Shown: positions 6,254 to 44,562, counted from the first letter of the stretch. The stretch: 64,000 bases of DNA from an uncultured Planctomycetia bacterium (GCA_964430735.1 CAYSFB010000002.1:222027-286026); one strand, 5' to 3'. Notes: generated by a model from the letters alone, not told the origin. Translations and numbers: made by a program.

Positions 6254-6327
6254 TGGTTGGGGAACTAGGGCTCGAACCTAGACTAAGTGATTCAGAGTCA
6301 CTCGTGCTACCATTACACTATTCCCCA
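6254..6327 (-). tRNA. tRNA-Gln (anticodon CUG)
   Basis: Folded by hand: acceptor UGGGGAA/UUCCCCA with the U1:A72 pair typical of bacterial tRNA-Gln. U8 is present. D-stem GUGU/GCAC. Anticodon stem AGUGA/UCACU with loop CUCUGAA (anticodon CUG). T-arm CUAGG-UUCGAGC-CCUAG. Discriminator A followed by an encoded CCA. Confidence 0.85.
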
Positions 6328-11252: not shown

Positions 11253-11762
11253 ATGAAGAAACTAAATATTGCAGCATTAACAACTCTCGCCCTTTTCCTG
11301 ACGGTGCCGGCCCTGGCCAATAACACCACCGTCAGCGTCAACGTCTCCTGCACGATCCTCCCCTTATTTGAGATGGAAGTGATCAGCCCCGTCAACGGGA
11401 TCGAATTCGGCGCGATCCAAAAGAATCCGGACGCCAACGTAGATGTCAGCGCGCCGGAAATCACCATCCGCGCCAAGACCAATATGGGCCAACCCTATAT
11501 CATCAAGCACGAACTTCTGACGCCCCTCGCCAGCGATAACGGCGCAATCCTTCCGGACGGCTCCATGAGCGTTGATGCCACCAGCGGCAACGGCTCAACG
11601 GCGCAAGGCCAGGCGGTCGGCACCGACCCGGAGGTTTTGTACCAATCCGACGCCAACGGCCAAAGCGATACGATTACGGCACGCTACAACCTGAACGTGC
11701 ATCCCGATCAGGACGCCGGTCAGTACCAGTCCAAACTGCTCTATACGATTGTGACGGCCTAG
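11253..11762 (+). CDS. Secreted spore-coat-protein-U (SCPU)/Csu-pilin-like subunit, 169 aa
   Basis: Signal peptide MKKLNIAALTTLALFLTVPALA. N-terminal TVSVNVSCTILP matches the SCPU V-x-a-x-V-x-x-C-x-i motif. C-terminal GQYQSKLLYTIVTA matches the SCPU G-x-Y-x-(S/D)-x-x-T-(Y/F)-x-I motif. RBS AAGGATGGG. Confidence 0.6.
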   Translation: MKKLNIAALTTLALFLTVPALANNTTVSVNVSCTILPLFEMEVISPVNGIEFGAIQKNPDANVDVSAPEITIRAKTNMGQPYIIKHELLTPLASDNGAILPDGSMSVDATSGNGSTAQGQAVGTDPEVLYQSDANGQSDTITARYNLNVHPDQDAGQYQSKLLYTIVTA

Positions 11763-11775
11763 CGGACGCTAGGTT

Positions 11776-12570
11776 TTAAGCGGAGACGGGCTCGAGACGA
11801 ACCGAACTTCCCTCGCGGAAGCTTCGGGCATCGCCCTCGAGGATGGAAGCGGTCGAGATACGCTCGTACAATGTTCCGATTTGAACCCTGCCGATCTTGC
11901 GATCCCCTGCAAATAAGTCGAATTTGGAATCCTGCTTGAGGCCGTTCTGCGAGCCCTGGCTCAGCACCACAAAACGGTGCTGTTCGTTCACGGTCAGGAC
12001 CTGGGCGCCGCTCTCTTTGAGTGAATCGAAGAATTTGGTCGGAGCGGGCGTCGCCACCGGCGCGGCCGCAATCGCGGCCTGCTGCATGACGGCCGGCATC
12101 GCCTGCTGTTCCACCTGAACCTGCCGAAGACCGGCGGCCGGGGCCTTCATCATGGCTGCGGCGGAACCGGCGCTCATCGGGCTTTGGGCCGTGATGTTGC
12201 GCAATTCGTTCTGAACCCCGTCCCAGGCGCCCGGCTGCTGGGTCCGAACCATCACCTCGCCCAGATCAACCGAACCCGAACCCGAAAGAAGTTTGATCAT
12301 CTCGGCCAGCAGACGGCGGATATGCTCGTCGCGCTCGCCCATCTGCTGGATCAGGAAACGCTTTTCGTTATTGGCCGCTTCGGCTTCCTGTTTCGCTTCG
12401 GCGAGGTCAGCCTGGCTCTTCACGAGCTGTTCGGAGACGGTTTTTAATCTTTTTTCAGCCTGGAGACGGATCTGTTTTTCGTATTTCCAGAAGAAGCCGG
12501 CGGAAAGAATGAGGACGATCGGAAGGATGCGGGCGATCATGAGGTAGGACGACCGATTCATCAATGACAT
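11776..12570 (-). CDS. Membrane-anchored coiled-coil protein with a small C-terminal beta domain; pilus-locus accessory protein of unknown function
   Basis: N-terminal TM helix ILPIVLILSAGFFW. Coiled coil QIRLQAEKRLKTVSEQLVKSQADLAEAKQEAEAANNEKRF. Ala/Gln-rich linker. It ends 31 nt downstream of the 12602..15526 outer-membrane protein gene on the same strand. Confidence 0.55.
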   Translation of the reverse strand: MSLMNRSSYLMIARILPIVLILSAGFFWKYEKQIRLQAEKRLKTVSEQLVKSQADLAEAKQEAEAANNEKRFLIQQMGERDEHIRRLLAEMIKLLSGSGSVDLGEVMVRTQQPGAWDGVQNELRNITAQSPMSAGSAAAMMKAPAAGLRQVQVEQQAMPAVMQQAAIAAAPVATPAPTKFFDSLKESGAQVLTVNEQHRFVVLSQGSQNGLKQDSKFDLFAGDRKIGRVQIGTLYERISTASILEGDARSFREGSSVRLEPVSA

Positions 12571-12601
12571 GCTCCTTTATATCACCCGCTCAGGCCTGTG
12601 G

Positions 12602-15526
12602 TCAAGAAACGGTGACCGGCAAGTCCTCGGAGCGCTGCGCCGGCGCAGCCGTAAACGTGAGATCCTTTGCAAAATCCGTCGTATAACCCGGCGCGGATCC
12701 GGGAACCAGCGTGAGCGTGTGCGTTCCGGCGGGAACGCGTTCGAACAAATAATATCCCTCGTCGTCCGCTTCAGCCTCCAGCGCGCCCAGTCGCACCTTC
12801 GCCTTCGCGACACCGGCCTCTTCCTTTTCCGCGTGGTTATTGCCGTTCGCGTCGACAAAGACGCGGCCGTTCACCGTGCGTTCGGCGGTCACCGCAAAGT
12901 CGAACCGGTACTGGACGCCCTCGCTCAACTCCAGCTGCTTGCGGATGGAGCCGACCGGCAGGTACCCGATGGGCAGCGACTTCAAGTCCAGTGTCATCGC
13001 GTGCGGGCCGGTCGCGACTTCGTCGAACCGGAAACGCCCGGACGCGTCAGAAACGCGCTGTTCCTTGCCGTCGAGGATGACTTTGACGCGGCCGACGGCC
13101 GTGTCGGTCGGATCGTACTTGCCGTTGCCGTTCAGGTCGTTGAACACAAGGCCCGCGATCGACGAACGCGACACGAGGCCAAAGTCCACGGACTTTCCGG
13201 CTTCGGCCAGTTCGACGTCGCGGCGCAGCGACCCGGTGACGGTATGTCCGTACGGAATTTTGTTGGGATCCAGGATGATCGTGGCGCGCTTGCCCCCGAT
13301 CGACGGCGTCTGGTAATTGCCCTGGGCGTCCGTCGTCACCTCCGTCCCGTTCGCGCGCACGATGAGGCCCGGCACGCCCGCTTCTTCCGGCTGGCGGCGT
13401 CCGTCGCCGTTCTTGTCCAGGTACACCGCGCCGAAGAATTTGGCCTGCGGCTCCCACCGGATCCCGGTGTCGTAGAGATACCGGACGCCGGTGACGATTT
13501 CGGCTTCGGCGCGCGCCTCGTTGATGCGGTTTTCGCCGCGCATGGCCGCGTACCGGCCGTCCAGGAAGAACTCCATATTCTCGAGCGTGTACGTCACCGA
13601 CCCCTGAAGCTCGAAGCGGTCTTCGCCGATCATGAAGCTGCGAAGGGATTCCGTCTCTTCCTCGTCGGTGTAACGCGCCGTGAGATCGGTCGTGAACGGC
13701 GTGTCCGCCAGCCGCGACCGGCGCGAAATCGCATACACCATCGACCGCGGGTGCGACACATCGTGGTTCAGGGTTTCTTCGAGCAGACTGATGTTGTGCT
13801 GATACGAAAAATACGTGTCCTTGAACAGCAGCGTCTGCATGCCGAGTCCGAGCGTGTTGCGGCGGTAGTTTGACTCCGGGTTCGACAGACTCTCGGTGTC
13901 GTCGTTCGAGAACCGGCTGTACAGCGAAACGCGGCGGTCGCCGATCGGGATGCCCTGCGTGTACGTGAGCGCCTGGCTCTTGGTGCGGTACGGGGAGATG
14001 AGGGCCGTTTCCTCATAATCCTTGAGGTCCGCCTGCAGCGACGACAAAGACGAAATCCGCCACTGGAGACTCGCGTCCTGCCGGGTGTTGAACCGGTCGT
14101 ACTCCGACGGCAGGAAAAACTGCCGGTCGCGGTACACGTCGAGCGCGAACCGCGCGTTGACCGAATCCGAAATATTCCACAAGAGGTCCGAGTTGATGCC
14201 CTGCTCGCCCTGGCCGCCGGGGTTGCCGACGACGGTGAAAAAACGCTTGGATGTGTCGCGCAGCTCGGACTTGAACTGCAGCCCCGGATAACGCCACGTC
14301 CCCGCGACGCGGTTCGAAAAATGGTCGCTGTCGTATCCCGTGTGGGTCGTCACGCCGAAATGGTCCGTCACCTTGTAGGCCTGGTCAAATTCAAAAGCCA
14401 TGTCGTTCAAGTCCTCCACCCGCGACTGGCCGTGCGCCTGCACGTAACCGAAGCGGTACTTGGCCGCCGGGTTGAGTTCGTAATCCACGAACCCGCCGCC
14501 CGCGTACGAATCGAGCGTCTCCTGCCCTCCGCCGAGACCGGTCGTCCCGAGCGTTCCCAGAATGCTGGTGAGTTCACGGCCGTAAAACGCGGTGTAGATA
14601 AACGGCTTTTTTTTGGGACGGTGATCCCATTGGACGCCGCGGAACCGGTACTGGGGCAAAATGAGCATGTCGGTCCTCATCTGCGTGTCGATCATCGACA
14701 GATCCGCGTCCTCGATCGCACCGTAATGAAAATCACTGATCCGCGCGGAGATCTGGCTGAGCTCGGGCTTGTTGTCGATCTCGCGGATTTCGGCATTGCC
14801 CGAAAATGCGCCGACCGGCGTGTCGCCGGTGACCTTGAAGCCCTGGCTGTAAGCAAGCGAGCTCTGGGCCAGCGTTTCGAAGTCGTTGCCCTGATAGTAC
14901 TGGGAACGGTTGTTGGTGTATTCGACCTTGAAGCTGTCGGCGCGTTCGATACGCTCTTCACGGCGTTTGACATACTGGGCGATGGATTTTTGCGGGATGA
15001 CGCGGATTTGGAGCGTCACGCGTCCTTCGACTTCCCAGATATGGACCACGGTGGTTCCGATCGCGGTGGCCTTCATCTGAAGCGCGCCCGGATTGATCAG
15101 GAAAAATTCGACTTTGTCTTCCGTCGTCGCGAGATAACGCTGAATGCCCCGGCCTTCGACCGTGGCGACCTGACCCAGCTCGAGGTCCAGCGGCCGCGTC
15201 ACGTTGCGAAGCTCGTCCATCGAGACCGTCACCGGATCCGGAACGCGGATGACCATTTCGTCCTGGTCGGCTTCGGTGGGCTCGAAGTATTTGGCGATGG
15301 GTCCGGAGGACTTCGTCTTGGTGCCTTCAAGAAACCCTTGAGGCCGAGTTTCGGCGGCTTCTTCGGGACCGCCGGAAGAGAACCGGTCGTTCCAGACGCT
15401 GTCCATTTTAAAAAACCGGGTGTTGGAGTCGGCAAAAGCGGGCCTTGCGGCGGCCAGAACCAAAAGGAACAGGAACGCAGCCGTTGAAGGAAGAAACAGC
15501 CGGAGGGGCCGGTGTTGCTGGATCAC
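12602..15526 (-). CDS. Large outer-membrane protein (usher-like candidate) with three C-terminal Cna-B/CarboxypepD_reg-like repeats
   Basis: The likely start is a GTG whose TG overlaps the chaperone TGA stop (GAGTGATCC), immediately before the signal peptide RPLRLFLPSTAAFLFLLVLAAARPAFA. The track's ATG at 15625 would overlap the chaperone gene by 100 nt. The middle region is beta-rich. The C-terminus has repeats GLVFNDLNGNGKYDPTD...GRVKVIL, GRVFVDANGNNHAEKEE...AKVRL, and YLDKNGDGRRQPEE. Confidence 0.6.
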   Translation of the reverse strand: MIQQHRPLRLFLPSTAAFLFLLVLAAARPAFADSNTRFFKMDSVWNDRFSSGGPEEAAETRPQGFLEGTKTKSSGPIAKYFEPTEADQDEMVIRVPDPVTVSMDELRNVTRPLDLELGQVATVEGRGIQRYLATTEDKVEFFLINPGALQMKATAIGTTVVHIWEVEGRVTLQIRVIPQKSIAQYVKRREERIERADSFKVEYTNNRSQYYQGNDFETLAQSSLAYSQGFKVTGDTPVGAFSGNAEIREIDNKPELSQISARISDFHYGAIEDADLSMIDTQMRTDMLILPQYRFRGVQWDHRPKKKPFIYTAFYGRELTSILGTLGTTGLGGGQETLDSYAGGGFVDYELNPAAKYRFGYVQAHGQSRVEDLNDMAFEFDQAYKVTDHFGVTTHTGYDSDHFSNRVAGTWRYPGLQFKSELRDTSKRFFTVVGNPGGQGEQGINSDLLWNISDSVNARFALDVYRDRQFFLPSEYDRFNTRQDASLQWRISSLSSLQADLKDYEETALISPYRTKSQALTYTQGIPIGDRRVSLYSRFSNDDTESLSNPESNYRRNTLGLGMQTLLFKDTYFSYQHNISLLEETLNHDVSHPRSMVYAISRRSRLADTPFTTDLTARYTDEEETESLRSFMIGEDRFELQGSVTYTLENMEFFLDGRYAAMRGENRINEARAEAEIVTGVRYLYDTGIRWEPQAKFFGAVYLDKNGDGRRQPEEAGVPGLIVRANGTEVTTDAQGNYQTPSIGGKRATIILDPNKIPYGHTVTGSLRRDVELAEAGKSVDFGLVSRSSIAGLVFNDLNGNGKYDPTDTAVGRVKVILDGKEQRVSDASGRFRFDEVATGPHAMTLDLKSLPIGYLPVGSIRKQLELSEGVQYRFDFAVTAERTVNGRVFVDANGNNHAEKEEAGVAKAKVRLGALEAEADDEGYYLFERVPAGTHTLTLVPGSAPGYTTDFAKDLTFTAAPAQRSEDLPVTVS

Positions 15527-16329
15527 TCGATCGTAATCTTTTTTTCCTCGACCAGCAGCGCGCCTTCGCCCATGTCGAAGGTGAACACGCCGTCGTAAAC
15601 TCCGGGAGCGAGGCGGCCGGCCCATTCGGTTTCTTGCGAGACGACGGCTCCGGCGCGGGCGTAGATCGTGGTGAGTTTGCCGCGGGCTTTCACGCCGCCC
15701 TCGAAGTCCATCAGGACGAATTCACCTTCCAGAGCGACCGCCGTGTTGCCGGTGTTGTGAAAAACGGTCTTGATCACCGCGGGACGGTTGCCTTTTCCGG
15801 GTGTGAGGGTCAATTCCTTGATTTTTCCTTCGCGCCGGATCGAGCCGGCGATGTCGACGTAAAAGAGCGATCCGATGCGTCCCGCGACCGTGACGCTTGC
15901 GCCCTCTTCGTTCTGCCCCATGCCGAGCGACGTCTCGAAAAACAGGATCGAGTACCGGGTGCCCGTCGAAGCGTCCGCGTCCGCCGGAACCGCGACGGTG
16001 TAATCGACGGTCTGCCGGCCGAAGGGTTCGATGGTCAGCTGACTGGGGTTGTAGGTGATCCAGGGCGAGGCGCTGTTCGGAAGCGTGCCGGCCGGAAAAA
16101 AGTCCTTGTCGCCGTTTCCGGTGTCGAGATATTCCCAGTCTTCGGTATAAACCTTCACGGTCACCGTGCCGTCGGTCGGATTCGAAATATGGATCTGTCC
16201 GGTTTTGGTTTCTCCGGCGGCGGCCTCGATCCGCACGCGCGCCTCGTCGATCCGGATCGTCGCCGCTTGCGCGGACGAAGCAGCCCACAGCAGGACCGCA
16301 AAAACCGCAAATATCCGATGTCGCATCAT
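15523..16329 (-). CDS. PapD-like periplasmic pilus-assembly chaperone
   Basis: Start chosen at ATGATG after a GGAG RBS, giving signal peptide MMRHRIFAVFAVLLWAASSAQA. The track's longer ORF starts at 16428. N-domain pattern RIDEARVRIEAAAGETKTGQIHISNPTDGTVTVKVYTEDW and IGSLFYV resembles PapD/FimC (..RVIF...L.I.N......L.Q.W...KLFYRP). It has two Ig-like halves. Confidence 0.55.
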   Translation of the reverse strand: MMRHRIFAVFAVLLWAASSAQAATIRIDEARVRIEAAAGETKTGQIHISNPTDGTVTVKVYTEDWEYLDTGNGDKDFFPAGTLPNSASPWITYNPSQLTIEPFGRQTVDYTVAVPADADASTGTRYSILFFETSLGMGQNEEGASVTVAGRIGSLFYVDIAGSIRREGKIKELTLTPGKGNRPAVIKTVFHNTGNTAVALEGEFVLMDFEGGVKARGKLTTIYARAGAVVSQETEWAGRLAPGVYDGVFTFDMGEGALLVEEKKITIE

Positions 16330-16408
16330 GATGAATCTCCTTATAAAACTTAAGTGCATTTTAGCAAAAATACACCGGTCATACACGGAGCAAATCGGGT
16401 CCAAAAGG

Positions 16409-16443
16409 AGAAGCGCCCCCCGGACCATTCCGGGAGGCGCTTC
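16409..16443 (-). terminator. Strong near-palindromic hairpin followed by a short U-run after subunit gene A1; candidate attenuating terminator ahead of the chaperone gene
   Basis: GAAGCGCCCCCCGGA-CCAT-TCCGGGAGGCGCTTC forms a 15-bp stem with one mismatch. On the minus strand it is followed by CCTTTTGG. It lies 52 nt after the A1 stop and 80 nt before the chaperone start. Confidence 0.4.
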
Positions 16444-16494
16444 TGGGTTACCCCCAGGGCCGCGGTTGCGGCCGAAGGAGAGAGTGGAGTTGCG

Positions 16495-17094
16495 TTAGGC
16501 CAGTGCGATCGTGTAGGTCGCCGAGGCGCTGTAGCTGCCCTGAGCCTGATCGAGCAGGATGGGCTGCCAACCGGTGAACGGAGGAGTGACACCGCCGCCG
16601 CTGATACCGTAAACGAGCTGGATCGTGGCCGCAGTACCCGCCGTGTTGGAGGTGTAGATCGTGGTGTTGTTCATCACCGCGTTCTGACCGCCGGCCGGGA
16701 ACACGTCACCCGTGATGTCGTTGTTGCCCGACTTGGCCGAAACCACCGTGCAGACCATCGCATGAGGAAGGGTCTGGGCGCCATTGGTCAGAGCCGGCAT
16801 CGTCGCCTTCACCGTGTAGGCACGGCTGGACGTGTTCGTGGACAGGTACACCGTGTAAGGATCCGCACCGCGCATGACACCGTTGACCGTATCACGGACC
16901 AGCTGGCCGAAGGGCATCGACGAACCGAGATTCGCACCGGTGGGAACACCGTTCGCATCCAGCTTATAGGTGGCCATCGTGATGTCGAGGACCTGATCCA
17001 CGCTCGCCGCAGCCGTCACCGTCTGGGAAGTGGCCGCCAGAGCGGGCATCGAGATCGCAAGAGACGTCGCAAGAATCGCAATTACCTTCTTCAT
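16495..17094 (-). CDS. SCPU/Csu-like secreted fibre subunit, type A (copy A1)
   Basis: Signal peptide MKKVIAILATSLAISMPALA. C-terminal GSYSASATYTIALA. About 50% identical to 18179..18781. GGAGG RBS. Confidence 0.6.
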   Translation of the reverse strand: MKKVIAILATSLAISMPALAATSQTVTAAASVDQVLDITMATYKLDANGVPTGANLGSSMPFGQLVRDTVNGVMRGADPYTVYLSTNTSSRAYTVKATMPALTNGAQTLPHAMVCTVVSAKSGNNDITGDVFPAGGQNAVMNNTTIYTSNTAGTAATIQLVYGISGGGVTPPFTGWQPILLDQAQGSYSASATYTIALA

Positions 17095-17146
17095 ATGAAC
17101 CTCCGTTATTCTTTAATGCCTGATTTTTTAACCGCTTAAATTGGGT

Positions 17147-17194
17147 ATAAAAAACCGGGCTGCCTAACCGTTTGATTGGCCTTGGCAGCCCGGC
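17147..17194 (-). terminator. Hairpin plus U6 (intrinsic-terminator-like) 53 nt upstream of the A1 start; candidate leader attenuator, or a terminator for B1
   Basis: Minus strand reads CCGGGCUGCC-N20-GGCAGCCCGG-UUUUUU. A putative sigma70-like promoter (TTGATA-N17-TATACA) lies further upstream at about 17380-17420, immediately after the B1 stop. That promoter would put this hairpin inside a ~250-nt 5' leader. Confidence 0.4.
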
Positions 17195-17421
17195 TGACCT
17201 TGAACACCTCAAGGTTCCTGGAGCTTTGCGTCCCACCCTTACGGATGGTTTGCCTTTTCAGTCCCGTATTCGTCTTTTGAATGAACCGCTTTGCTTACGA
17301 ACCGGACGAATATCTGTTTGAAGTCTACCCTACGCGATACGAGATTTCAAGAGTCTACAGAAACTTTTTTTATATGTTATATGATAAATGTTTGTATAAA
17401 TGTCGATTAACACGATATCAA

Positions 17422-18027
17422 TTAAGCGGTCAATTCGATCTGAAAGGTAATGGTCGAAGAGTAGGTGCCGCCGGCCTGGTCAAAAGGGACGAATTCCGTG
17501 GCGCCGGCATTAGGATCGTTGGTGATGGCGTAGGTAAAAGCGACCGGGGTATAGCTGCCGGCCGGTTCACTCTGATAGATGATTTTGTTGTTGGCGATGA
17601 AGCTTCCGCGGGTACCAATGGAAGCGCCGGCAGGATAAGCTTGGCCGTCCTTATTGACGGGCCAAGGAGTCACGATGCAGGATCCGGCCGGAAGGGTCTT
17701 GGTGCCGTTGCTGAGGGCCGTCGCGGACTGGGTGAGGCGGAAGGGGCGGCCGGAAGAATTGGGATGTAGATAAACGTCGAAGTAATTCTCCCCTCTCATC
17801 GGGCCCTGGCCGGCGTCGGCCTTAAGGGTGCCGAAATTCATGGCGCTGGCGCCCCAGTTCGTCACAACCCCATCCTTATACTGGCGGATTTCGACGCCCA
17901 ATTCCAACACCGACTGGACCGTTGCCGAAAGCGGCACGGTGACCGAGCCTCCCGCCGCGTGGGCGGAAGCAGCCAGGAACAGCGAGGCTGCGAAGAGTTG
18001 GAGGGTTTTGAGCGTCTGCTTCATCAT
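17422..18027 (-). CDS. SCPU/Csu-like secreted fibre subunit, type B (copy B1)
   Basis: Signal peptide MMKQTLKTLQLFAASLFLAASAHA. C-terminal GGTYSSTITFQIELTA. About 60% identical to 18848..19480. Confidence 0.6.
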   Translation of the reverse strand: MMKQTLKTLQLFAASLFLAASAHAAGGSVTVPLSATVQSVLELGVEIRQYKDGVVTNWGASAMNFGTLKADAGQGPMRGENYFDVYLHPNSSGRPFRLTQSATALSNGTKTLPAGSCIVTPWPVNKDGQAYPAGASIGTRGSFIANNKIIYQSEPAGSYTPVAFTYAITNDPNAGATEFVPFDQAGGTYSSTITFQIELTA

Positions 18028-18098
18028 GACTTCCTTGGTTGAAGATAAATCCTAACGGAAATCTACATGACGCAGGGACCTGTTTCAAGACCGTCCCA

Positions 18099-18136
18099 AA
18101 ATAAAAACACCCCCGGGGTCGCCCCCGAGGGTGTTT
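18099..18136 (-). terminator. Rho-independent terminator after subunit gene A2
   Basis: Minus strand reads AAACACCCUCGGGGGCGACCCCGGGGGUGUUUUUAUUUUGGG: a GC-rich stem followed by a U-rich tract. It lies 43 nt after the A2 stop. Confidence 0.65.
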
Positions 18137-18178
18137 AAAGTTCCGGAGTTTTTCCGAAGAAAACCCCGAATCGACCGT

Positions 18179-18781
18179 TTAGAGGGTCGCGATCGTGTAA
18201 GTGATCGTGGACGAGTAGCTGCCAGCGGCCTGATCCGGCTGCACGGGCTGGAAACCCGAGAACGGAGCGGCGCCGCCCGCGGCGAAGCCCGCGATACCGT
18301 ACCACATTTCGATCGTGGCGCCGGTGCCGGAAGTGTTCGAGCGGTAGATTTCGACGCTGCTCATGATCGCGTTGCGAAGCGAGATCATGGTGTCGCCGGT
18401 GATATCGTTGCCGAGAGAGTCCTTCGCCGAAACGATCGACGCACCCATCGCCGGAGGCAGGGTGTTCGCGCCGCTGGTGAGGGCCGACATCGAGGAAACG
18501 ATGTTGTACGGACGGCTGGACGTGTTGGCGCCCAGGTACACGGCGTAGTTCTTCGGGCTCACAAGGGCGCTGAAGCCGTTGTTCACGAGCTGACCGAAGG
18601 CCATGGAAGCCGCCGGGGTGGTCAAGGGCAGGTCGGTGCCGACAGCGCGCTCGAACACACCCATCGTCAGGTCAAGGGTCTGACCGACGCTGGCTGAAAC
18701 GGCAACGCTTTGGGTGGTGGCCGCGAACGCCGGCATCGTCATCGATACCGCCGCTGCAAGCGCGATAAGGGTCTTCTTCAT
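18179..18781 (-). CDS. SCPU/Csu-like secreted fibre subunit, type A (copy A2)
   Basis: Signal peptide MKKTLIALAAAVSMTMPAFA. C-terminal GSYSSTITYTIATL. Paralogue of A1. Confidence 0.6.
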   Translation of the reverse strand: MKKTLIALAAAVSMTMPAFAATTQSVAVSASVGQTLDLTMGVFERAVGTDLPLTTPAASMAFGQLVNNGFSALVSPKNYAVYLGANTSSRPYNIVSSMSALTSGANTLPPAMGASIVSAKDSLGNDITGDTMISLRNAIMSSVEIYRSNTSGTGATIEMWYGIAGFAAGGAAPFSGFQPVQPDQAAGSYSSTITYTIATL

Positions 18782-18847
18782 TTCATTCCTCCTGGTGTAC
18801 TGACTAAGGTCCGTGACTGTTTAAAACAAACTTTTCCGAAACGGCCG

Positions 18848-19480
18848 TTACGATGCCAGCTCGATCTGGAACGTGATCGAGGACAGATAATTGCCCCCCG
18901 CCTGGTCCGCAGGGACGATCTGCGTCGATCCCAGCCCGCTGTCGCTCGTCACCGCGTAGGTCATCGCCACCGGTGCATAAAGCCCTGACGGGCCGCTCTC
19001 GTACAGAACTTTTCGCGTCGAAACAAAACTTCCTCGGCTGCCGATCGTCGCGCCGGACGGATACGCGGCGCCGTTCTTGTCCACCGGCCACGGCGTCACG
19101 ACACAGGCGCCGGCAGGGATCGTCGTCGTCCCGTTGCTGAGAGCCGCGGCGGCCTGGGTCAGCCGGTAAGGCCGCTGGGACGAATTCGGGTGCAAATAAA
19201 CGTCAAAGTAATACTCGCCGCGCATAGGGCCGTTCGTGACGTCGCTTTTCAGCAGGCCGAAGGCGATCTGCGATGCGCCGTAGTTGATCACGGTTCCGTC
19301 TTTGATCTGACGAATCTCGATCCCCAGCTCCAGCTGGGACTGAATGCTGGCCGACATCGGAACCGTGACGGTATCCGCTGCCAAAACGCATGCGCTGCTG
19401 TTCAGAAATAAGCTGAAGGCAGCAATTCCGGAACAGATTAAAAAAGCTCGATTAAAAGGGGTCAACATTAGCTTCATCAT
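18848..19480 (-). CDS. SCPU/Csu-like secreted fibre subunit, type B (copy B2)
   Basis: Signal-peptide-like N-terminus. C-terminal GGNYLSSITFQIELAS. Shares the internal motifs MRGE(N/Y)YFDVYLHPNSS and TPWPV(N/D)K(D/N)G with B1. An AT-rich promoter-like region lies upstream at 19481..19612. Confidence 0.6.
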   Translation of the reverse strand: MMKLMLTPFNRAFLICSGIAAFSLFLNSSACVLAADTVTVPMSASIQSQLELGIEIRQIKDGTVINYGASQIAFGLLKSDVTNGPMRGEYYFDVYLHPNSSQRPYRLTQAAAALSNGTTTIPAGACVVTPWPVDKNGAAYPSGATIGSRGSFVSTRKVLYESGPSGLYAPVAMTYAVTSDSGLGSTQIVPADQAGGNYLSSITFQIELAS

Positions 19481-19612
19481 TCAATTTGGAGATAGGGCAT
19501 TCTACTGCTTCGCCCCAAAAATAACAAGAAAATCTATTTTCTAAATAGTCATGTTATTTGGATAAATACTAAACTCGGTCGGAGGGATATTGGGGGTCAA
19601 ACAGGCTGCGAA

Positions 19613-20998
19613 CTACGAGAGAGAAGAGAGGGAGTACGTGGTCTCGGAGGTGTACTCGCCGCCGCTGGTGTCGCGGGGAAGCGTGAGGGTGTAATCGATC
19701 ATAAAATCGTCCGAACTGCCTTCCGAATCGGAAGTAAAGATGGCGGTGTCCCCTGCCTGAACGGGCTTCACGCTCATGACGGCCATTTCGCCCGTCCGGG
19801 CGCCGCTCATCACCAGCGTGAAGTTGTCCGGCGGCAGAATGCGGCCGCTTTCGTTGGTGAAGAGGCGCGACACTCGCTGAATCACCTGGTAGCGCTGCCC
19901 CGTATTGTTGTGGGCCTGAATATGCACCCGCCGAGTCTGCGCATCCCCTTCGTTCTTGAATTTGCCGAAGTTGAGGCCGCCGGCTGATTCATGCTCCACG
20001 TCGAGATAAAACAGGGTTTCGATTTCGAGGTCCAACGGCACCGTCACCGGCACGGCGAAGTCGGCCGATGCGTCGGATTCGACAAAGAATTCGATCGTGG
20101 ACCGGTACGGCCCGGCCGTAGCGGAAGCCACTTCTTCGCCGGTCCGGTACGCCACAGTAAAGGAGGCGGCGGAACCAGCGTCATCCGATTCATAAACCAG
20201 CGTCTGAGTTGTCGACAGCGGCTGCTCCTGTGCGACCACCTGCCCGGCATCCGCACGGGAGGCCAGCGCCAGGATGCCGCCCTCATTCATAGCTTGGCCC
20301 ATGGGACCGGACAGGCGGTCCGTCAGCCGCTGATACACCCGGTAACGGCCGCCGAGTCCGGCTCCGATGCGCACTTCGAGAGCGCCCGTGCCTTCCGGCC
20401 GCTGGCGCGTGATCCGGCCGAGACTCAAGGAGGATCCGCCGTTGACATTTTTGACGTCGAGGAAAAAGTCGGGACGAACTTCGGCGGTCACCTGAAGCAC
20501 CCGCGTCACCGTGGAGGCGCCTCCGTCGACGGGCTCCATCTGATACACGAGCTCGGAGCGGTAAACGCCCGCGGCATCCGTGGGTTGGGATTCGAGCGCG
20601 AAGACGAGCGCAAATGTCTCGGCCGAACCGCCGTTGTCGGAATCGAAGATCACCGTCTGACCGGGTTCCAACGCCGTCGGAAAAATGATCCCGAGACGCC
20701 CCCCGACCGAGCTGGGGCTGAACACCTTGACCGCTCCCGGAGACAGGGTCTGGCCGCGCTCATTGAGGAAAGGGCTCATCTGCTGCTGGACGATCCGGTA
20801 GCGCCGGCCCTCGTCGTTGGCGACCGTCAGTGTCACTTCTTCGTTGCGGGTGGGCTGGCCGGGTTTGGCCGGGGTAAAACGGACATCGCGTCCCCCGCGG
20901 TCGGGAAGGACCGAAAAGTCGAACTGCGCCCATGCCGTCTGGGCAAAGCCCGCGCAGGCGCACAGCAGAAGCAGGAGGGATTTGAAAGGAAGCTTCAT
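19613..20998 (-). CDS. Secreted protein built from three tandem SCPU-like domains; candidate tip adhesin or pre-polymerised subunit
   Basis: Start at MKLPFKSLLLLLCACAGFAQTAWA after an AAGG RBS; the track ORF starts 12 codons earlier. There are three ~150-aa repeats. Each carries an RYR(I/V)(V/Y)Q motif and ends in an SCPU-like G-x-Y-x-S motif (AGVYRSELVYQME, AGPYRSTIEFFVE, GGEYTSETTYSLS). Confidence 0.55.
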   Translation of the reverse strand: MKLPFKSLLLLLCACAGFAQTAWAQFDFSVLPDRGGRDVRFTPAKPGQPTRNEEVTLTVANDEGRRYRIVQQQMSPFLNERGQTLSPGAVKVFSPSSVGGRLGIIFPTALEPGQTVIFDSDNGGSAETFALVFALESQPTDAAGVYRSELVYQMEPVDGGASTVTRVLQVTAEVRPDFFLDVKNVNGGSSLSLGRITRQRPEGTGALEVRIGAGLGGRYRVYQRLTDRLSGPMGQAMNEGGILALASRADAGQVVAQEQPLSTTQTLVYESDDAGSAASFTVAYRTGEEVASATAGPYRSTIEFFVESDASADFAVPVTVPLDLEIETLFYLDVEHESAGGLNFGKFKNEGDAQTRRVHIQAHNNTGQRYQVIQRVSRLFTNESGRILPPDNFTLVMSGARTGEMAVMSVKPVQAGDTAIFTSDSEGSSDDFMIDYTLTLPRDTSGGEYTSETTYSLSSLS

Positions 20999-21041
20999 GA
21001 CTACAACCTTACCTTGTAAAAGGCCGGCTTGCAAGGGAGGA

Positions 21042-23897
21042 CTAGAATTCTCCGTCGAGGCTGAAGCGGAACAGATGCTCCGTGTCGACCGTGGGAAGCG
21101 AGAAGGTAGTGACGGAATAGGCGGACACCGGAAGCGCGTCGGAGCCTTCGTAGAAGGTCTGGCCGAACACGCCGTACTCCATGGTCAGACGCGTGTTGGT
21201 GTTGATCCGATAACGCAGACGCGTGTAAATGTTGTGGTTGTCCTCGAATTCAAGCTCGGTGTAACCGGACGCGATCAGCTTGGGGATATCCCCCAGATGG
21301 CTGTGGGTGTAATCGAAGAAAGCCGACCACCGGTCGTCGATCTGCCAATCGATGCTGATTCCCTGATGTTCGACGTTATCGTCGATCGGACCCCAGAGCG
21401 TGTACGTGTTCTGCGCCGCGTGGAAGATGAACTGCAGGTCTTCGGTATGGCGGTACGTGATGCGCTCCTTGACGATCGAGAAGTAGTCGTAGGGAGGCAG
21501 GTCAAAAATGTCCTGACGGTACAAAAACGCCTGGTTGCGGTACAGCCACCAGCTGGGCGTGTTCGGGTCCTGGAACATCGTGGTCGCGTACACGTTGTTG
21601 AGCAGGCCGCGCGGAAAGTCCGGAATGTCATTGGTGTATTCGAAGGTTCCGGAGAGCGTCCACTGATGGGTCGGCTCCCACTGGAGCCCCTGGCCGAAGG
21701 AACGGCGGTTCGCGTTGAGACCCGGATCGATCATGCTGTTCTCGTAGTAGATCCCCTCCTTGAGCGCAGGGTCGTTCAGCGCCGGCGAGTTGAAGCCGGA
21801 GATAAAAGGCTCGCGGTCGCTGAGCGTCTTGGGAAGGATGTGGAAACGCATGAAGTTCTTGAACGTCCAGTCCTGCGCGAACTTCCAAGTGGTCTCGTCG
21901 CGGATGACGTTTTCGATGAAGCTGTTGGAATCGGTGTCGCGGACGTGGCGCAAGTCGAACAGGTTGTCCACGCCTTTGTCCGGGCTCGACGTCGCCAGAT
22001 TCAACCGCGCGACATAACGGCCGTAATCGACGCCGGTTCCGATCTTAAACGGTTCGACGTCGGGCGGAATCTTCGCCCAGGTGATGTGCGTCCCCCAGAA
22101 TTCGTCGTCCCGGAGCGAAGTGTAATTGGACAGCGTTTCTTTGAACTCCGTGTCCACCCACGTGAAGTCGCCGTTGACACGGGTGATGCCGGATTTGGAA
22201 TCGCCGACGTGCGAAACGAATCCGCCCACATAAGCCTGGCCTTCGTAAGCCGTCTGGAACGAGCTCAAGCGGTCGAGGTCGTCGCGCGAACCGGCCATCT
22301 GGCCGTACATGTAATCGGTTTCGTTGGTGTAATACTTGGTGTCGATCGAAATCACCTGGTTGTACGCGTCCGGTTCCCGGTCGATCAATCCCACCCGGTA
22401 GGTGTAGGTCGATCCGAGCATCCACTGCTCGGTGACCTGATGCTTCAGCCGCACCACGCCCGGAATGTTATCGAATTCCTGATAATCGTCCCACAGGCCG
22501 TACCGGGACGCGATCATCATTCCCAGATAAGTTCTGCCGAAATCGGCTTCGACCGCACCGCCGCGGAGCAGCGTCAGGTAATTGCCCTCGGAATCCTTGG
22601 CATAAAACGCTTCTTCGTCGCTGTAATAGCCGCGGCGGATCACCGGAGACCGGGCGATCGGCACGCCGATCGGGTTGAACTTTTGAAGCGGCTCCCACTG
22701 TTCCAACCACGCCGAGTGCTCCCAGAAGTCTTTGCGGTTCGACAGCTGCAGCGGATCGTCCGTCGTCATCACCTGGTTCTGATCCGCCAGCGCGAAGAGC
22801 CGCACATGCCAGATGTCGCCCTCGTGATCCCACCAGGCCTTGCGCAGCGGACGGAACTCGTAGTCGATATCCTGGGCCGGCACGTTGTACGTGTTGAAGT
22901 TGCTGCCGATCCCGAACGCGTCGTAAATACCGTGGACGGTGTAGGGCTGAGTGGCGCCGTTTTCGGCCTCGAGCTCCGGCGTCGCCATGGAATTACCGGC
23001 ACGGCTCTTGACGATCGTGGGGATCGTGGAGTTGTTGGGGCCCCAGTATTTCTGTTTGATGCGGAAGGAATCGGCTCCGCCGACGCTGGGGACTTCGATT
23101 TCGCTGGTCTGACCCACATACGACCAGGGATCGGCGACGATCTGGACAAAAACGGAATCCTGCTTCGTCACCTGCGAGTCGATGTCGAGACGGTACTGGC
23201 TGTAAATCGCCGGATCGAAGGTGTTGTACTGGCGGTCGCCGAACAGGTAGTGGAAGTCGCGGTCCTGAAGGTCGGAGTTGGAATCGTTGAGCGAAAAGTT
23301 CCGGTTGCGGCCCGCGCCGAACGCCGCGCGGTAAGTTCCCGAAACGCGCGTGCGGGAAGCGATTTCGCGGTCGATCGCGTCCATGTCTTCATAGTTCTGG
23401 TCGATCACTTGCTTGGGATCGGGCGCAGGCACGGCGGCGGCAGGCTTGGCGGCGACAGGATTGACTGCGGCCGGCCTGACTGCGGCCGGGGCCTGGACGT
23501 TGCGGACCGGAGCGGATTCCGTCGCCGGACTCTTGGCCGGCGTTATATTAGAGGAGGAGGTGGCGGCTGTCGACTTGGGCGCAACCGCGGGCGATGCTGA
23601 TTTGACCGAAACCGGCGTACCTTGGCTTGCAGCCGGCGCGGAAGCGGTTACCGCGGGCTTGCCAGGCTGTGCCGCGGTGTGTTCGGGCTTCCAAAATGCG
23701 GCTTCACGCGCGCGCTTGAGATGATCCTGAATTTTGGAATCGAGGTCGTTGAGCTCTTTATCGAATTCTTCGAACTCGGCGTTGGATTGAGCCGCTGAGA
23801 CGGGAGCGGCACCGACTGCCTGCCACAGGAAACAGGCCGCCAGCAAGAAGCTGAAAGATTTGAGCGGACGAATGGAAAAAGAAGTTCCGGAGTTCAT
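21042..23897 (-). CDS. Large outer-membrane beta-barrel protein, ~951 aa, with an N-terminal coiled coil and an Ala/Pro/Ser-rich linker
   Basis: Start chosen at MNSGTSFSIRPLKSFSFLLAACFLWQAVGAAPVSAAQS (signal peptide). The track's 23941..24071 extension would overlap the upstream gene. The C-terminus ...FRFSLDGEF ends in Phe, as outer-membrane barrels usually do. The protein is rich in aromatic/Gly beta-strand patterns. Confidence 0.55.
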   Translation of the reverse strand: MNSGTSFSIRPLKSFSFLLAACFLWQAVGAAPVSAAQSNAEFEEFDKELNDLDSKIQDHLKRAREAAFWKPEHTAAQPGKPAVTASAPAASQGTPVSVKSASPAVAPKSTAATSSSNITPAKSPATESAPVRNVQAPAAVRPAAVNPVAAKPAAAVPAPDPKQVIDQNYEDMDAIDREIASRTRVSGTYRAAFGAGRNRNFSLNDSNSDLQDRDFHYLFGDRQYNTFDPAIYSQYRLDIDSQVTKQDSVFVQIVADPWSYVGQTSEIEVPSVGGADSFRIKQKYWGPNNSTIPTIVKSRAGNSMATPELEAENGATQPYTVHGIYDAFGIGSNFNTYNVPAQDIDYEFRPLRKAWWDHEGDIWHVRLFALADQNQVMTTDDPLQLSNRKDFWEHSAWLEQWEPLQKFNPIGVPIARSPVIRRGYYSDEEAFYAKDSEGNYLTLLRGGAVEADFGRTYLGMMIASRYGLWDDYQEFDNIPGVVRLKHQVTEQWMLGSTYTYRVGLIDREPDAYNQVISIDTKYYTNETDYMYGQMAGSRDDLDRLSSFQTAYEGQAYVGGFVSHVGDSKSGITRVNGDFTWVDTEFKETLSNYTSLRDDEFWGTHITWAKIPPDVEPFKIGTGVDYGRYVARLNLATSSPDKGVDNLFDLRHVRDTDSNSFIENVIRDETTWKFAQDWTFKNFMRFHILPKTLSDREPFISGFNSPALNDPALKEGIYYENSMIDPGLNANRRSFGQGLQWEPTHQWTLSGTFEYTNDIPDFPRGLLNNVYATTMFQDPNTPSWWLYRNQAFLYRQDIFDLPPYDYFSIVKERITYRHTEDLQFIFHAAQNTYTLWGPIDDNVEHQGISIDWQIDDRWSAFFDYTHSHLGDIPKLIASGYTELEFEDNHNIYTRLRYRINTNTRLTMEYGVFGQTFYEGSDALPVSAYSVTTFSLPTVDTEHLFRFSLDGEF

Positions 23898-23940
23898 GGA
23901 TATTGAGAATTTTACAACAGTGTTCGGAATAATGCGATAA

Positions 23941-25890
23941 CTATCTATCGTCAAAAGGGTTAAAACCCTTCCACGCAAAAATGCCGTACGCCGTGCCCGC
24001 GACGGAACCGGTGCGGTTGCCGGCCGGCGTACGCCAGCCGTGGCCCGTTTCGACGTCTCCGGCAGTGGCATATGGCAGACATCCGCGGCCCTGGCCGACG
24101 CGCGACAGGCTCGAGATGATCATTTTTTGCAATTCGTTGAGATAGAAGTTGATTTTGTCCCGGTAATACGCCGCTTTTTCCGCGTTGCCCGCCGCTTCAA
24201 AATATTTTTCCAGAATCCGGAACGTGACGACGGCCTGCGCCGTCCACTCGGACGACACGACGCCGCCGCGGCCCTGGTTCTGCGGCTTGGCGAAGTCGAA
24301 TCCCGTGACGCGCACCGAGCGTCCGTCAGGCCGGTCAAAGTTGACCTCGACGCGGCAATGCTCTTCCGCGAATTCCATGATCCCTTCCGGGTCGAACTGC
24401 GCTTCGGCCAGCCGCGCCGGGCCGATCGCAGCGATCGACCAGCTGAACGTGTCAGTCGCAATGGTTGCGTCCCCTTTACCGCGCTTGAACGCGCCGCTCG
24501 TGCGGTCGGCCGCATGCTTCATCAGCCACGCGAACAATTCCTCCTGCGCCTTGAGATAACGCGCGTCCTGCGTGAGCCGGTGCAGCATCCCGAAAAACGC
24601 GTACGCGTCCAGGTTGTGCTCGGTGCTGAACCACTCGGTCTTCGGCCCGCCGCGCAGTCCGCGCTCCGGGTCGCGCGCCTGCAGCTCAAGCAGCCAATTC
24701 CCGATCGACTGCGCCAAGCCCTGAAACGCGGTGTCGCCCGTCATCCGCTGGTATTGCAGAGCGGCGATGCCGATCCAGACGTTGGGACCGACGTGCACAT
24801 TCCACTCGACCGGCTCGCCCGAGGGAGCGTCGTACGACGAGATATAAGCTCCCTCGGATTTCTTGGCGCGATCCCGGTAAAACGTCAGAATGCGACGCGC
24901 GTTGTCATTTTTTTGAAAAAGTGTGAACGCGATCGCCGCGACGGCCTGGTCATAGGTGTACGCGATCCCCTCGAGCTTCGGATCCCCTTCGTAGCTGGGC
25001 AAAAGACCTGTCTGCGTGTTCGCGTGGCGCTCAAGCCAGGAAACAAGCTGGGTGAGAACGGCTTCCTCTTTAAGACCCGAGGATTCGGACGCGGAATGGA
25101 GCGTGACGCGTCGGTCGGCGCTTTCTTTCTGGATCAGCGTGAGCTGGTTGCGCAGATCACTCTCGCGCTTGAGCGCCGCTTCGAGTTCCTGGTGAAAAAA
25201 TTCCGCCTGGTCTTCCGTCACGCCCTCCGCCGACATCGCCTGCGTGCTGCGCGCCTGCTGTTCCTTGGCCGCCTTGAGATCGAGCGCGAGTTTGCGCTGG
25301 CGCGACGCCATTTCTTCGAGCCCGCGGATGAGATCGTCGCGCCCTTCGGCCGACGTGACGATCGAAGAGACGAGGCGGCGGTTTTCCATCAGCAGATGAA
25401 TCTGGTTGAACGCCTGTCCGACGACGACCGCGCACAGGAACAGCACCGTGCCGATGAAAAACCGCGGGATGAAGCGGCGGATGCGCGCGTAACGAAAGAT
25501 TTTTTGGGCGACCCAGGATTCGGCGGTTTCGTACTGGACGCCGACCAGGTGGACGGAGCGGCCGTCTTCGTCTTTGCGGGAGAGCCATGCGACATGCGAA
25601 GTGACGGCGATGGGTTTGGGCCGGAACGGGGCGTGAACCAGGAGATCGAGCGTTGCCTGCCGCGATTCGAGGTCGGCGGCTTCGGTCGGCGGAAGCGAAC
25701 GGAATTCGAGCATCATGCCGCCAAGACTGACGTTGCGCGTAAAGCCCTGAAGCGAAACGGACGGCGCGGACTGACGGGGATGCCGGAGAACCATCTCGAC
25801 GGGAAAAACGGTGTCCATCCGGACATACCGGCGGCGCTCGGGTCCGGAGGCGTTGGGGTCGATCGCGCGCGGCTCGTCGGAGGTCGGCAT
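23941..25890 (-). CDS. PilZ-domain (c-di-GMP receptor) protein fused through one TM helix and a coiled coil to an (alpha/alpha)6 glycoside-hydrolase-like periplasmic domain
   Basis: PilZ motifs RRYVRMDT and NVSLGGMMLEF (RxxxR ... D/NxSxGG). TM helix FFIGTVLFLCAVVVGQAF. Coiled coil at residues ~180-260. The C-terminal 380 aa have a six-hairpin glycosidase-like pattern (GIAYTYDQAVAAIAF, WIGIAALQY, NLDAYAFFGM). The exact GH family is unresolved. Confidence 0.6.
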   Translation of the reverse strand: MPTSDEPRAIDPNASGPERRRYVRMDTVFPVEMVLRHPRQSAPSVSLQGFTRNVSLGGMMLEFRSLPPTEAADLESRQATLDLLVHAPFRPKPIAVTSHVAWLSRKDEDGRSVHLVGVQYETAESWVAQKIFRYARIRRFIPRFFIGTVLFLCAVVVGQAFNQIHLLMENRRLVSSIVTSAEGRDDLIRGLEEMASRQRKLALDLKAAKEQQARSTQAMSAEGVTEDQAEFFHQELEAALKRESDLRNQLTLIQKESADRRVTLHSASESSGLKEEAVLTQLVSWLERHANTQTGLLPSYEGDPKLEGIAYTYDQAVAAIAFTLFQKNDNARRILTFYRDRAKKSEGAYISSYDAPSGEPVEWNVHVGPNVWIGIAALQYQRMTGDTAFQGLAQSIGNWLLELQARDPERGLRGGPKTEWFSTEHNLDAYAFFGMLHRLTQDARYLKAQEELFAWLMKHAADRTSGAFKRGKGDATIATDTFSWSIAAIGPARLAEAQFDPEGIMEFAEEHCRVEVNFDRPDGRSVRVTGFDFAKPQNQGRGGVVSSEWTAQAVVTFRILEKYFEAAGNAEKAAYYRDKINFYLNELQKMIISSLSRVGQGRGCLPYATAGDVETGHGWRTPAGNRTGSVAGTAYGIFAWKGFNPFDDR

Positions 25891-41977: not shown

Positions 41978-42427
41978 CTAGGATGATGGCTGGGTCGCGA
42001 GCCTTTGACGGAGAGAATCGGCCTTAGATTTGAGAGCCTTTTGGCGATCTTCGTTCATTGTGGCAATCGAGGCGTATTCGTAATTGTCAGCGGCGTTATT
42101 TAGATCGCCCATCTCTTCGTAGGTTTGGGCGATGTAATCGAGAGCAATGGCCTGCGCAGGTCTGATTAGTGCATATTTTTTAAGGGCTTCTGTGTAAGCG
42201 CTAATCGCCATTTCATATTCACCAGTCTTTCGATAAGCATCACCCTGATGTTTTAACTCCAGGAAGCGGTCGGCTTGTTCATAATTATTTCTAAAATGAC
42301 TGGTCTTTTGATTTAAGCCGGTCGGTAGATTGGATTTTTTGTCGTTAGTCTGACTTCCGCTTGTGTTGCACCCAGCAAGAGCGCATAACTGAATCAGAAG
42401 TAGTCCGTGTATCAACCGATTTTTCAT
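41978..42427 (-). CDS. TPR-repeat lipoprotein, 149 aa
   Basis: Lipobox LCALAGC. TPR-like helices (YRKTGEYEMAISAYTEALKKYA...). Low-GC codon usage. Confidence 0.6.
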   Translation of the reverse strand: MKNRLIHGLLLIQLCALAGCNTSGSQTNDKKSNLPTGLNQKTSHFRNNYEQADRFLELKHQGDAYRKTGEYEMAISAYTEALKKYALIRPAQAIALDYIAQTYEEMGDLNNAADNYEYASIATMNEDRQKALKSKADSLRQRLATQPSS

Positions 42428-42440
42428 ACTGCCCTCTTGA

Positions 42441-42650: not shown

Positions 42651-42755
42651 AGTATCCATTAATTATCAAATAATTTTCAATACTTAACTTTAGCTACAAT
42701 CTATTACTTGTGGTACTTGAGTCTTTGGCTACAAGATGTGGAATCAAGCCCAATT

Positions 42756-43253: not shown

Positions 43254-43310
43254 AGCTCATTGCACCTTATCGGGATCAAGAATATACCGTTTTGATTCAC
43301 TGTCGTAAGA

Positions 43311-43520: not shown

Positions 43521-43523
43521 GGC

Positions 43524-44558: not shown

Positions 44559-44562
44559 ATGG

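Follow-up and report, generated by a model that had tools for sequence, protein, structure and literature searches.

What does an alternating array of paralogous genes for small secreted proteins build: a fibre whose two kinds of subunit must be assembled together, or one whose composition can be varied? The question is raised by a 64,000-nucleotide (nt) stretch of DNA from an uncultured Planctomycetia bacterium (GCA_964430735.1 CAYSFB010000002.1:222027-286026), here called the window, in which positions 16,495 to 19,480 hold four such genes. A first interpretation, made from the DNA alone and referred to here as the sequence-only reading, saw in these genes an ancient tandem duplication of a cassette of two fibre subunits, A and B. 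Paralogous subunit arrays are common in pilus operons, and the duplication itself is ordinary. Our analysis instead draws attention to how the copies are regulated. We favor a model, to which we assign a probability of roughly 0.55, in which A and B are alternative or additive building blocks of one surface fibre, with their proportions set by separate regulation. The evidence for the two subunit types, for their separate regulation and for the history of the pairs is presented below, together with the other explanations that the locus admits.

Two types of subunit

The sequence-only reading gave exact coordinates for the four open reading frames (ORFs), all of which lie on the minus strand and are therefore transcribed in the order B2-A2-B1-A1. 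The B2 gene (18848..19480) encodes a protein of 210 amino acids (aa), A2 (18179..18781), which begins 66 nt 3′ of B2, one of 200 aa, B1 (17422..18027) one of 201 aa, and A1 (16495..17094), which has the ribosome-binding site (RBS) ACGGAGG ahead of it, one of 199 aa. Global pairwise alignment gives 50.5% identity between A1 and A2 and 63.2% between B1 and B2, in line with the estimate of 50–60% within each type, and 31.7–38.5% for the four A-versus-B pairs. The four proteins are thus not equally distant from one another. The same division appears in alignment scores measured against shuffled controls (z-scores of 55 and 94 within types, 18–28 between types) and in phylogenetic trees of 46 and 57 members, where two deep clades are resolved and the window copies group as A1 with A2 and B1 with B2. 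The two types had been thought to share only their terminal motifs. This proved too narrow, as identity between A and B extends over the full length of the alignment, at 14–51% per 20-column segment, with peaks in the C-terminal strand (51%) and in a central NxSSRxY...ALxNG block (39%). As judged from these alignments, A and B are homologous over their whole length.

All four proteins carry what reads from the sequence as a typical signal peptide, with an MKK-type start, a hydrophobic stretch and an AxA-like cleavage site, and they are predicted to be secreted beta-sandwich proteins of ∼18 kDa. B2 has a longer N-terminal leader ('FNRAFLICS...'), which is kept among its orthologues (P0011, P0019 and P0021). 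One public annotation of B2 (P0012) starts at an internal methionine, is 169 aa long and loses the signal peptide. The longer ORF, with an 'FNRxFLICS' leader common to the orthologues, is more likely to have the correct start.

Database searches place these subunits outside the described pilin families. The label SCPU, which the sequence-only reading had attached to the terminal motifs, has to be withdrawn, as neither the four subunits nor any relative scanned matches PF05229. Pfam scans of the four window proteins (E ≤ 1), 41 close members (E ≤ 10) and 128 diverse members (E ≤ 0.01) returned no match to SCPU, Fimbrial (PF00419) or any other family among 169 family members, and NCBIfam returned none for the four subunits. 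Searches of PDB sequences with profiles of 4, 41 and 128 members gave noise only (e.g., the signal peptide against Fab chains). A relationship with FimA was considered and rejected; hhalign of the 128-sequence profile against Escherichia coli FimA yields a probability of 1%. A word-indexed search of 5.8 billion proteins returned 42 matches, one of them a named Candidatus Omnitrophica protein from a metagenome-assembled genome (MAG), and an exhaustive profile search returned 357 representatives of 50%-identity clusters at E ≤ 1e-3. On the strength of these searches and trees, this is a subunit family with no match in Pfam, NCBIfam or solved structures, and it comprises two old subtypes, A and B.

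Structure prediction offers a view of what these proteins may do. An AlphaFold2 model of B1, built from 41 sequences, has a mean predicted local distance difference test (pLDDT) score of 83 and forms an eight-strand beta-sandwich. The mature N-terminus (residues 25–42; AGGSVTVPLSATVQSVLE) lies outside any secondary structure with a pLDDT near 50 and has alternating hydrophobic residues, and three positions of this N-terminal strand, V31, A35 and L41, are nearly invariant across A and B. Because the segment is unstructured in the model yet its alternating hydrophobic positions are nearly invariant, it resembles the donor strand that would be expected to complete a neighbouring subunit. Foldseek searches of the PDB with the subunit model give weak matches, among which subunits of strand-complemented filaments predominate at the top, namely an archaeal bundling pilus (7ueg), CS20, the PapA rod (5flu) and the TasA fibre (8aur) (E 4e-3 to 3e-2); CsuA/B chains are absent from the top 50 fold matches. 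Taken with the gene context, the predicted fold makes the identity of these proteins as fibre subunits plausible.

Predicted separate regulation of the array

The 327-nt spacer between B1 and A1 holds a riboswitch aptamer for cyclic di-guanosine monophosphate (c-di-GMP) of the c-di-GMP-I (GEMM-I) class at 17181..17264 (minus strand). It scores 57.4 bits against RF01051, for which the gathering score is 35, and agrees with that model at all strongly conserved consensus positions. Judged by the covariance model, it can be counted as a genuine c-di-GMP-I riboswitch. Upstream of the aptamer, the A1 leader has a promoter-like, sigma-70-like site (TTGAAA-17-TAGACT; 17322..17350, minus strand), which is conserved in eight of eight aligned leaders, and its predicted expression platform is a terminator hairpin followed by six U residues (17147..17195, minus strand; −29.1 kcal/mol, z −5.0), which is invariant in the eight-sequence alignment. 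The terminator has 12-bp arms, and the one on the 5′ side, AGCCGGGCUGCC, takes in the 3′ strand of the second helix of the aptamer. Folding prediction indicates that the full A1 leader adopts the terminator by default. Since the terminator overlaps the aptamer sequence, the ligand-stabilised aptamer should prevent termination, making this a predicted ON switch by which A1 would be expressed at high c-di-GMP.

The design recurs in related loci, designated here by L numbers. The eight aligned leaders lie 5′ of A1 in the window, L001, L002, L004 (two copies) and L007, and 5′ of B1 in L002 and L004; promoter, aptamer, terminator and RBS are almost invariant among them. An aptamer stands upstream of A1 in every relative examined (L001, L002/L015, L004 twice, and L007), and the homologous elements in relatives score 38–64 bits. 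In L002/L015 and L004, B1 is likewise equipped with a riboswitch leader of the A1 type, and in the distant operons L009, L016 and L017 the only subunit gene, or the first of them, follows a riboswitch of the same clan. A search at E ≤ 1 found none upstream of B2, A2 or B1 in the window. Further riboswitches of the c-di-GMP-I clan occur on the opposite strand near the distal operon end of L018 (10027-10107, minus strand) and L016 (13912-13999, minus strand), one of which is above the threshold of the 'UAU' variant model.

The aptamer resembles known c-di-GMP-I riboswitches in scoring above the curated threshold and in being followed by a competing intrinsic terminator. Other known members of the class are also found upstream of pilus or adhesin genes. 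The element described here differs in lying inside a paralogous subunit array, where it controls one paralogue (two in some relatives). A full-text literature search found no paper on a c-di-GMP riboswitch of a chaperone-usher-type operon. The choice of ligand calls for some caution. The RF03167 ('GGC') variant model gives the window aptamer 52.6 against a cut-off of 59, and several relatives' aptamers score better with the RF03167 or the RF03168 ('UAU') variant models. In the literature on the 'GGC' variant we found it listed only.

The remaining genes of the array have regulatory signals of other kinds. A consensus scan places promoter-like sites upstream of B2 (TTGTTA-17-TAGAAT; 19499..19527, minus strand) and of B1 (TTGAAA-17-TAGATT; 18060..18088, minus strand), the latter of the same type as the A1 promoter. 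The TTGAAA-17-TAGA pattern occurs twice in the window, before A1 and before B1, against 0.02 occurrences expected. The sequence-only reading had noted a terminator-like hairpin after each A gene, and both are present. The one after A2 (18105..18136, minus strand) has the form of an intrinsic terminator, with a 14-bp G+C stem followed by UUUUUAUUUU, and the 84-nt stretch around it has a folding energy of −39.9 kcal/mol (z −4.4). The one after A1 (16409..16444, minus strand) has a 16-bp stem followed by UCCUUUU; it is kept in four relatives, in which base changes on both arms preserve pairing. Between this hairpin and the next gene, which encodes a 268-aa protein, lies a conserved TGnTAAAAT motif that may be a separate extended −10 promoter. 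The 66-nt spacer between B2 and A2 in the window contains no hairpin.

With promoters predicted in this way, the array resolves into what look like three transcription units instead of forming a single operon of four equivalent genes. The first would consist of a promoter-like site, B2, the unstructured 66-nt spacer, A2 and a terminator; the second would consist of a promoter and B1; and the third would run from a promoter through the c-di-GMP-I riboswitch and A1 to the hairpin. This separate regulation of the units is the reason that we read the paralogues as alternative or additive parts, not as an obligatory A+B pair.

Copy number, origin and roles of the paralogues

Related loci encode 1, 2, 3, 4 or 6 subunit genes. 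L001 has the same B2-A2-B1-A1 order as the window, L004 extends it to B2-A2-B1-A1-B3-A1, L002/L015 hold B1-A1, and L007 is arranged as A1'-B1-A1. Other loci depart from the alternating pattern: L009 and L017 contain two B-like genes and no A, L016 one B-like gene, the locus of P0039 one A-like gene, and L018 one divergent subunit gene that we leave unassigned to a type. Whether orthologous loci hold one pair or two, which the sequence-only reading had proposed as a check, has no single answer; a lone B1-A1 pair (L002/L015) and two pairs (L001) both occur, as do loci with one, three and six genes.

Two arrangements among the relatives deserve separate mention. In L004, the riboswitch leader and A1 are repeated at 100% identity (12351-13212 and 14113-14974, 1762 nt apart), either by a very recent tandem duplication or as an assembly artefact; between the two A1 copies lies B3, a divergent B-like gene encoding 223 aa. 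In L005 (10001-10612) and also in L006, an orphan A-type gene (P0036), 58% identical to A1, sits away from any fibre operon and is flanked by lptC/lptB-like genes and a LacI-family regulator. These two assemblies come from the same sample series as contigs that carry the window's A1.

The duplication was rightly described as old. In the trees, the window copies fall into four orthologous groups common to other genomes, and all four orthologues are found in the same order in L001 and L004, which indicates that the paralogue splits are older than the separation of these organisms. At the DNA level, the two pairs of the window share a single repeat, a 43-nt stretch of 81% identity, and so show no recent duplication or gene conversion. 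Phase or antigenic variation, which had been offered as a possible use of the duplicate pairs, finds no footing in the DNA of the window: it contains no inverted repeats save the A1 hairpin, no slippage-prone or meaningful tandem repeats, and no silent partial copies.

Whether both pairs descend from one duplicated cassette is less clear. B2 and A2 are neighbours, separated by 45–66 nt, in the window, L001 and L004; these three have both genes and L002/L015 and L007 have neither, so that the pair behaves as a module of two genes, gained or lost together. A neighbour-joining analysis of 57 sequences with 100 bootstrap replicates gives a support of 100 to B2, 100 to an exclusive B1+B2 clade, 100 to A2 and 83 to the A1 core, and 20 to an exclusive A1+A2 clade. 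A2 shares 47% identity with A1 and 47–49% with the A-like proteins P0039 and P0040. From these sequence relationships, B2 is clearly a duplicate of a B1-like gene. The sisterhood of B1 and B2 and the B2-A2 module thus agree with duplication of a single A+B cassette, whereas the low support for A1+A2 leaves it unestablished. Such an event is plausible but not demonstrated and would need faster evolution of A2; either this occurred, or A1 and A2 have separate histories.

Several of these patterns also fit an explanation that takes the cassette further, in which one ancient B+A duplication produced the array, each pair is a functional unit, and A and B must co-assemble as a heteropolymer. The alternation of B and A is strict even in the six-gene L004, B2 never occurs without A2 or A2 without B2, the close clade has a single B1-A1 pair (L002/L015) as its smallest locus, and B1+B2 has a bootstrap of 100. 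A precedent exists in the PamA and PamB pilins, which occur together in one pilus of candidate phyla radiation (CPR) bacteria (bioRxiv 10.64898/2026.03.03.709456). We nonetheless consider obligatory co-assembly unlikely. The B-like-only L016 and the A-like-only P0039 locus keep the same accessory genes, L009 and L017 manage with two B-like genes and no A, and L007 has the order A-B-A. Moreover, the A1+A2 bootstrap is only 20%, the two pairs have diverged unequally (50% versus 63%), and A1 is regulated separately from B1. The single-subunit loci in particular argue against an obligatory A+B heteropolymer. The heteropolymeric fibre proposed in the sequence-only reading therefore does not stand as a requirement; since B and A alternate strictly in three genomes and PamA and PamB set a precedent, a mixed fibre may still form.

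Two additional members of the subunit family bear on how labor might be divided among the paralogues. One is a 473-aa protein (19613..21034, minus strand) that consists of three tandem subunit-like domains (hmmsearch with the family profile, E 6e-15) and whose orthologues in all loci likewise match as subunit-like domains. The other, at the operon's far end, is a fifth stand-alone paralogue, C (11253..11762, plus strand; 169 aa; E 2.6e-17 to the family profile). Every locus that extends far enough contains a single copy of C, which is better conserved than A or B and could be a tip, adaptor or terminator subunit.

These proteins invite comparison with Fim and Pap pili, where A would form the major shaft while B, C and the 473-aa protein would be minor components (adaptor, tip, terminator). 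Each A gene closes a transcription unit with a hairpin; attenuating stem-loops follow major pilin genes such as papA, and the A-gene hairpins resemble these. A1 also has a strong RBS, its own promoter and a riboswitch, and each locus has a single copy of C and of the three-domain protein, both of which are better conserved. However, B1 in L002/L015 and L004 has an A1-type riboswitch leader, and in L016, L009 and L017 the first or only subunit gene under riboswitch control is B-like. Riboswitch leaders on B-like genes suggest that B behaves as a major subunit too, and we regard a fixed division of labor as even less likely than obligatory co-assembly.

Accessory genes and relation to known fibres

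The operon around the array, which we assign to Omnitrophota, is conserved in at least eight other assemblies, a tally that includes a scan of a genome collection with a 17-sequence alignment. Its first gene (23941..25890, minus strand) encodes a 649-aa PilZ-domain protein (PF07238; E 3.9e-7, 30.8 bits against a cut-off of 22.5) and is kept in L001, L004, L007 and L009. It is followed by an ORF of ∼975–1009 aa (21042..24071, minus strand) that has no Pfam match and orthologues of 971–988 aa. It probably starts further downstream, past its overlap with the PilZ gene, and its ...LDGEF ending may be an outer-membrane beta-barrel signal. After the 473-aa gene and the array come genes for a 268-aa secreted protein (15523..16329, minus strand), a 934-aa protein (12602..15406, minus strand) and a 264-aa protein (11776..12570). 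Uncorrected ORFs overextend two of these: 15523-16428 would encode 301 aa and start inside the A1 hairpin, and the other would span 12602-15625 (minus strand). Public gene calls, including the public protein P0190 for the 268-aa product, and orthologues point to 16329 (268 aa) and 15406 (934 aa) as the most likely start positions.

The 268-aa protein is a candidate chaperone or adaptor. Its AlphaFold2 model (pLDDT 90) contains two immunoglobulin (Ig)-like domains. The best Foldseek match is an Enterococcus WxLIP (E 2e-14), followed by RbmA and several dozen chaperones of chaperone-usher systems; CfaA, EcpB, FimC, Caf1M, CsuC, PapD and SafB match at E 1e-9 to 1e-8 with probability 1.0. Its sequence profile against the PDB finds WxLIP1 (E 2.4e-4) and the fimbrial chaperone EcpB (E 0.019). 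The protein has no match to PF00345 or PF02753, hhalign against E. coli FimC gives 0.2%, and 16 of the 23 members of its family show weak matches to PF06030 (WxLIP_PGBD). A distant relative occurs in L010, a Blastocatellia MAG (GCA_035634255.1; 141-8185), near an 894-aa SdrD_B/CarboxypepD_reg protein and alongside two proteins of ∼230–240 aa that do not match the subunit profile. Acidobacteriota may therefore have a related system with a different subunit family.

At its N-terminus the 934-aa protein shows a weak 'pilus formation N-terminal' domain, and its C-terminal part contains Ig-like domains of the SdrD_B and CarboxypepD_reg families. A homologue search recovered seven close relatives plus Ig-domain noise only. 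Neither this protein nor the 1009-aa protein matches the usher family (PF00577). At the level of sequence, we tried and rejected the 934-aa protein as an usher: PDB searches with the single sequence and with a seven-orthologue profile were empty, and hhalign against FimD gave 0.1%.

Three features lie beyond the operon. A 1111-aa ORF (7712-11047, minus strand) with no Pfam match has counterparts of 1111–1112 aa, likewise without a Pfam match, beside the operon in L002, L004 and L007. At 6257-6327 (minus strand) there is a tRNA gene. The G+C content falls to 0.45–0.53 at ∼42000-46000, compared with ∼0.60 elsewhere in the window, and this segment may have been horizontally acquired.

Taken together, the operon most likely builds a surface fibre by chaperone-assisted, donor-strand-type assembly. 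The conserved amphipathic N-terminal strand of one subunit would complete the fold of the next, aided by the two-Ig-domain 268-aa protein and by one or both of the large proteins, which are predicted to reside in the outer membrane. Separate promoters and terminators would set the proportions of the subunits, with A1 responding in addition to c-di-GMP: high c-di-GMP would turn A1 on, while B2, A2 and B1 have no such switch in this genome. The PilZ protein would add a c-di-GMP input at the protein level.

Several observations weigh against this model. The fold matches of the subunit to pilins are weak, with template modelling (TM) scores of 0.3–0.46 and no E below 1e-3, and sequence and profile comparisons reveal no kinship with FimA, FimC, FimD, SCPU or any usher. 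The best match of the 268-aa protein, in fold as in sequence, is WxLIP, a protein of Gram-positive surface complexes and not a pilus chaperone. The 934-aa protein is a candidate outer-membrane assembly platform, and its presumed location is itself a prediction. On the regulatory side, the promoter calls are pattern matches, and the TGnTAAAAT motif before the 268-aa gene means that the assembly genes may not depend on the riboswitch. Finally, c-di-GMP is not certain to be the ligand, as the score of the window aptamer falls between the parent class and the 'GGC' variant model.

The closest functional analogues of the locus are chaperone-usher pili and the Pam pili of CPR bacteria. Like the chaperone-usher operons (Fim, Pap, Csu/SCPU), it has several paralogous subunits of ∼170–200 aa with signal peptides, a C-terminal 'G-x-Y-x-x-x-x-T-[FY]-x-[IL]' strand and a conserved amphipathic N-terminal strand in the subunits, a neighbouring periplasmic protein with a two-Ig-domain chaperone fold, a large neighbour, presumably in the outer membrane, with C-terminal Ig-like domains, and hairpins 3′ of the presumed major subunit genes. 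It departs from them in that neither sequences nor profiles connect its proteins with Fimbrial or SCPU pilins, PapD-type chaperones or ushers, and the fold matches of its subunits are weak. It also differs in having two large proteins predicted in the outer membrane, a PilZ protein and a fused three-domain subunit, and in placing subunit genes under a riboswitch. The locus resembles a chaperone-usher pilus in its parts list and in one accessory fold, and by sequence it belongs to no chaperone-usher family.

Pam pili share with this locus a lack of sequence relatives and recognition through fold, two paralogous major pilins (PamA and PamB) of low mutual identity, a proposed donor-strand exchange, and PapD/FimC-like chaperones identified by structure prediction only. 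In contrast to the system described here, Pam pilins have two domains, the CPR hosts are monoderm, the chaperones are membrane-anchored and there is no outer-membrane component. The sole link is a sub-threshold NCBIfam match of the last 40 residues of the 473-aa protein to the Pam pilin C-terminal domain (NF058581; E 3e-4). Membership among the Pam pilins was rejected, as this match reaches 20.9 bits against a threshold of 55 and the four subunits have none.

A third comparison is with the WxL clusters, in which WxLIP combines DUF916 and DUF3324 and to which the 268-aa protein, a remote WxLIP relative by its best structural match, forms the link. One report (PMC10599100) describes WxLIP as binding small secreted partner proteins encoded beside its gene. 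The present locus differs in that the partner proteins have no WxL domain, the organism is diderm and large proteins are predicted in the outer membrane; membership in the WxL clusters was rejected, as a WxLIP-like protein is present and the subunits have no WxL-domain match. Omnitrophota, the group to which we relate this system, are diderm. The least probable alternative is a non-polymerising surface complex like those of Gram-positive WxL clusters, with the WxLIP-like protein tethering small beta-rich proteins and the paralogues acting as alternative surface ligands: the Enterococcus faecium WxLIP matches of the 268-aa protein in fold and sequence, the weak PF06030 matches in its family and the lack of detected usher homology favor it, but the subunits lack a WxL domain match, the two ∼950-aa proteins are predicted in an outer membrane (taking Omnitrophota as diderm), the subunit model leaves a conserved N-terminal strand unpaired, and the three fused subunit domains fit serial domain-to-domain contacts.

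The fibre model, with A and B as alternative or additive subunits, can be extended beyond this locus. The system is unannotated and possibly represents a new pilus class. More specifically, though we hold this tentatively and think it somewhat doubtful, Omnitrophota and some other phyla would encode a new class of donor-strand-type fibre whose composition is reprogrammed by c-di-GMP riboswitches placed before individual paralogous subunit genes, and whose subunits, chaperone-like and outer-membrane parts have no detectable sequence kinship to the chaperone-usher, type V, TasA or Pam systems. A c-di-GMP riboswitch between paralogous subunit genes is a testable mechanism by which a second messenger could set fibre composition, and the presence of one to six subunit genes in otherwise identical operons is a natural experiment on which subunits are dispensable. 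Omnitrophota are uncultured, mostly ultra-small and suspected to be host-dependent. In the main genomic survey of this phylum (PMC10066038), type IVa and Tad pili are the only ones considered. A further adhesive fibre, if its existence is borne out, would bear on how these bacteria attach.

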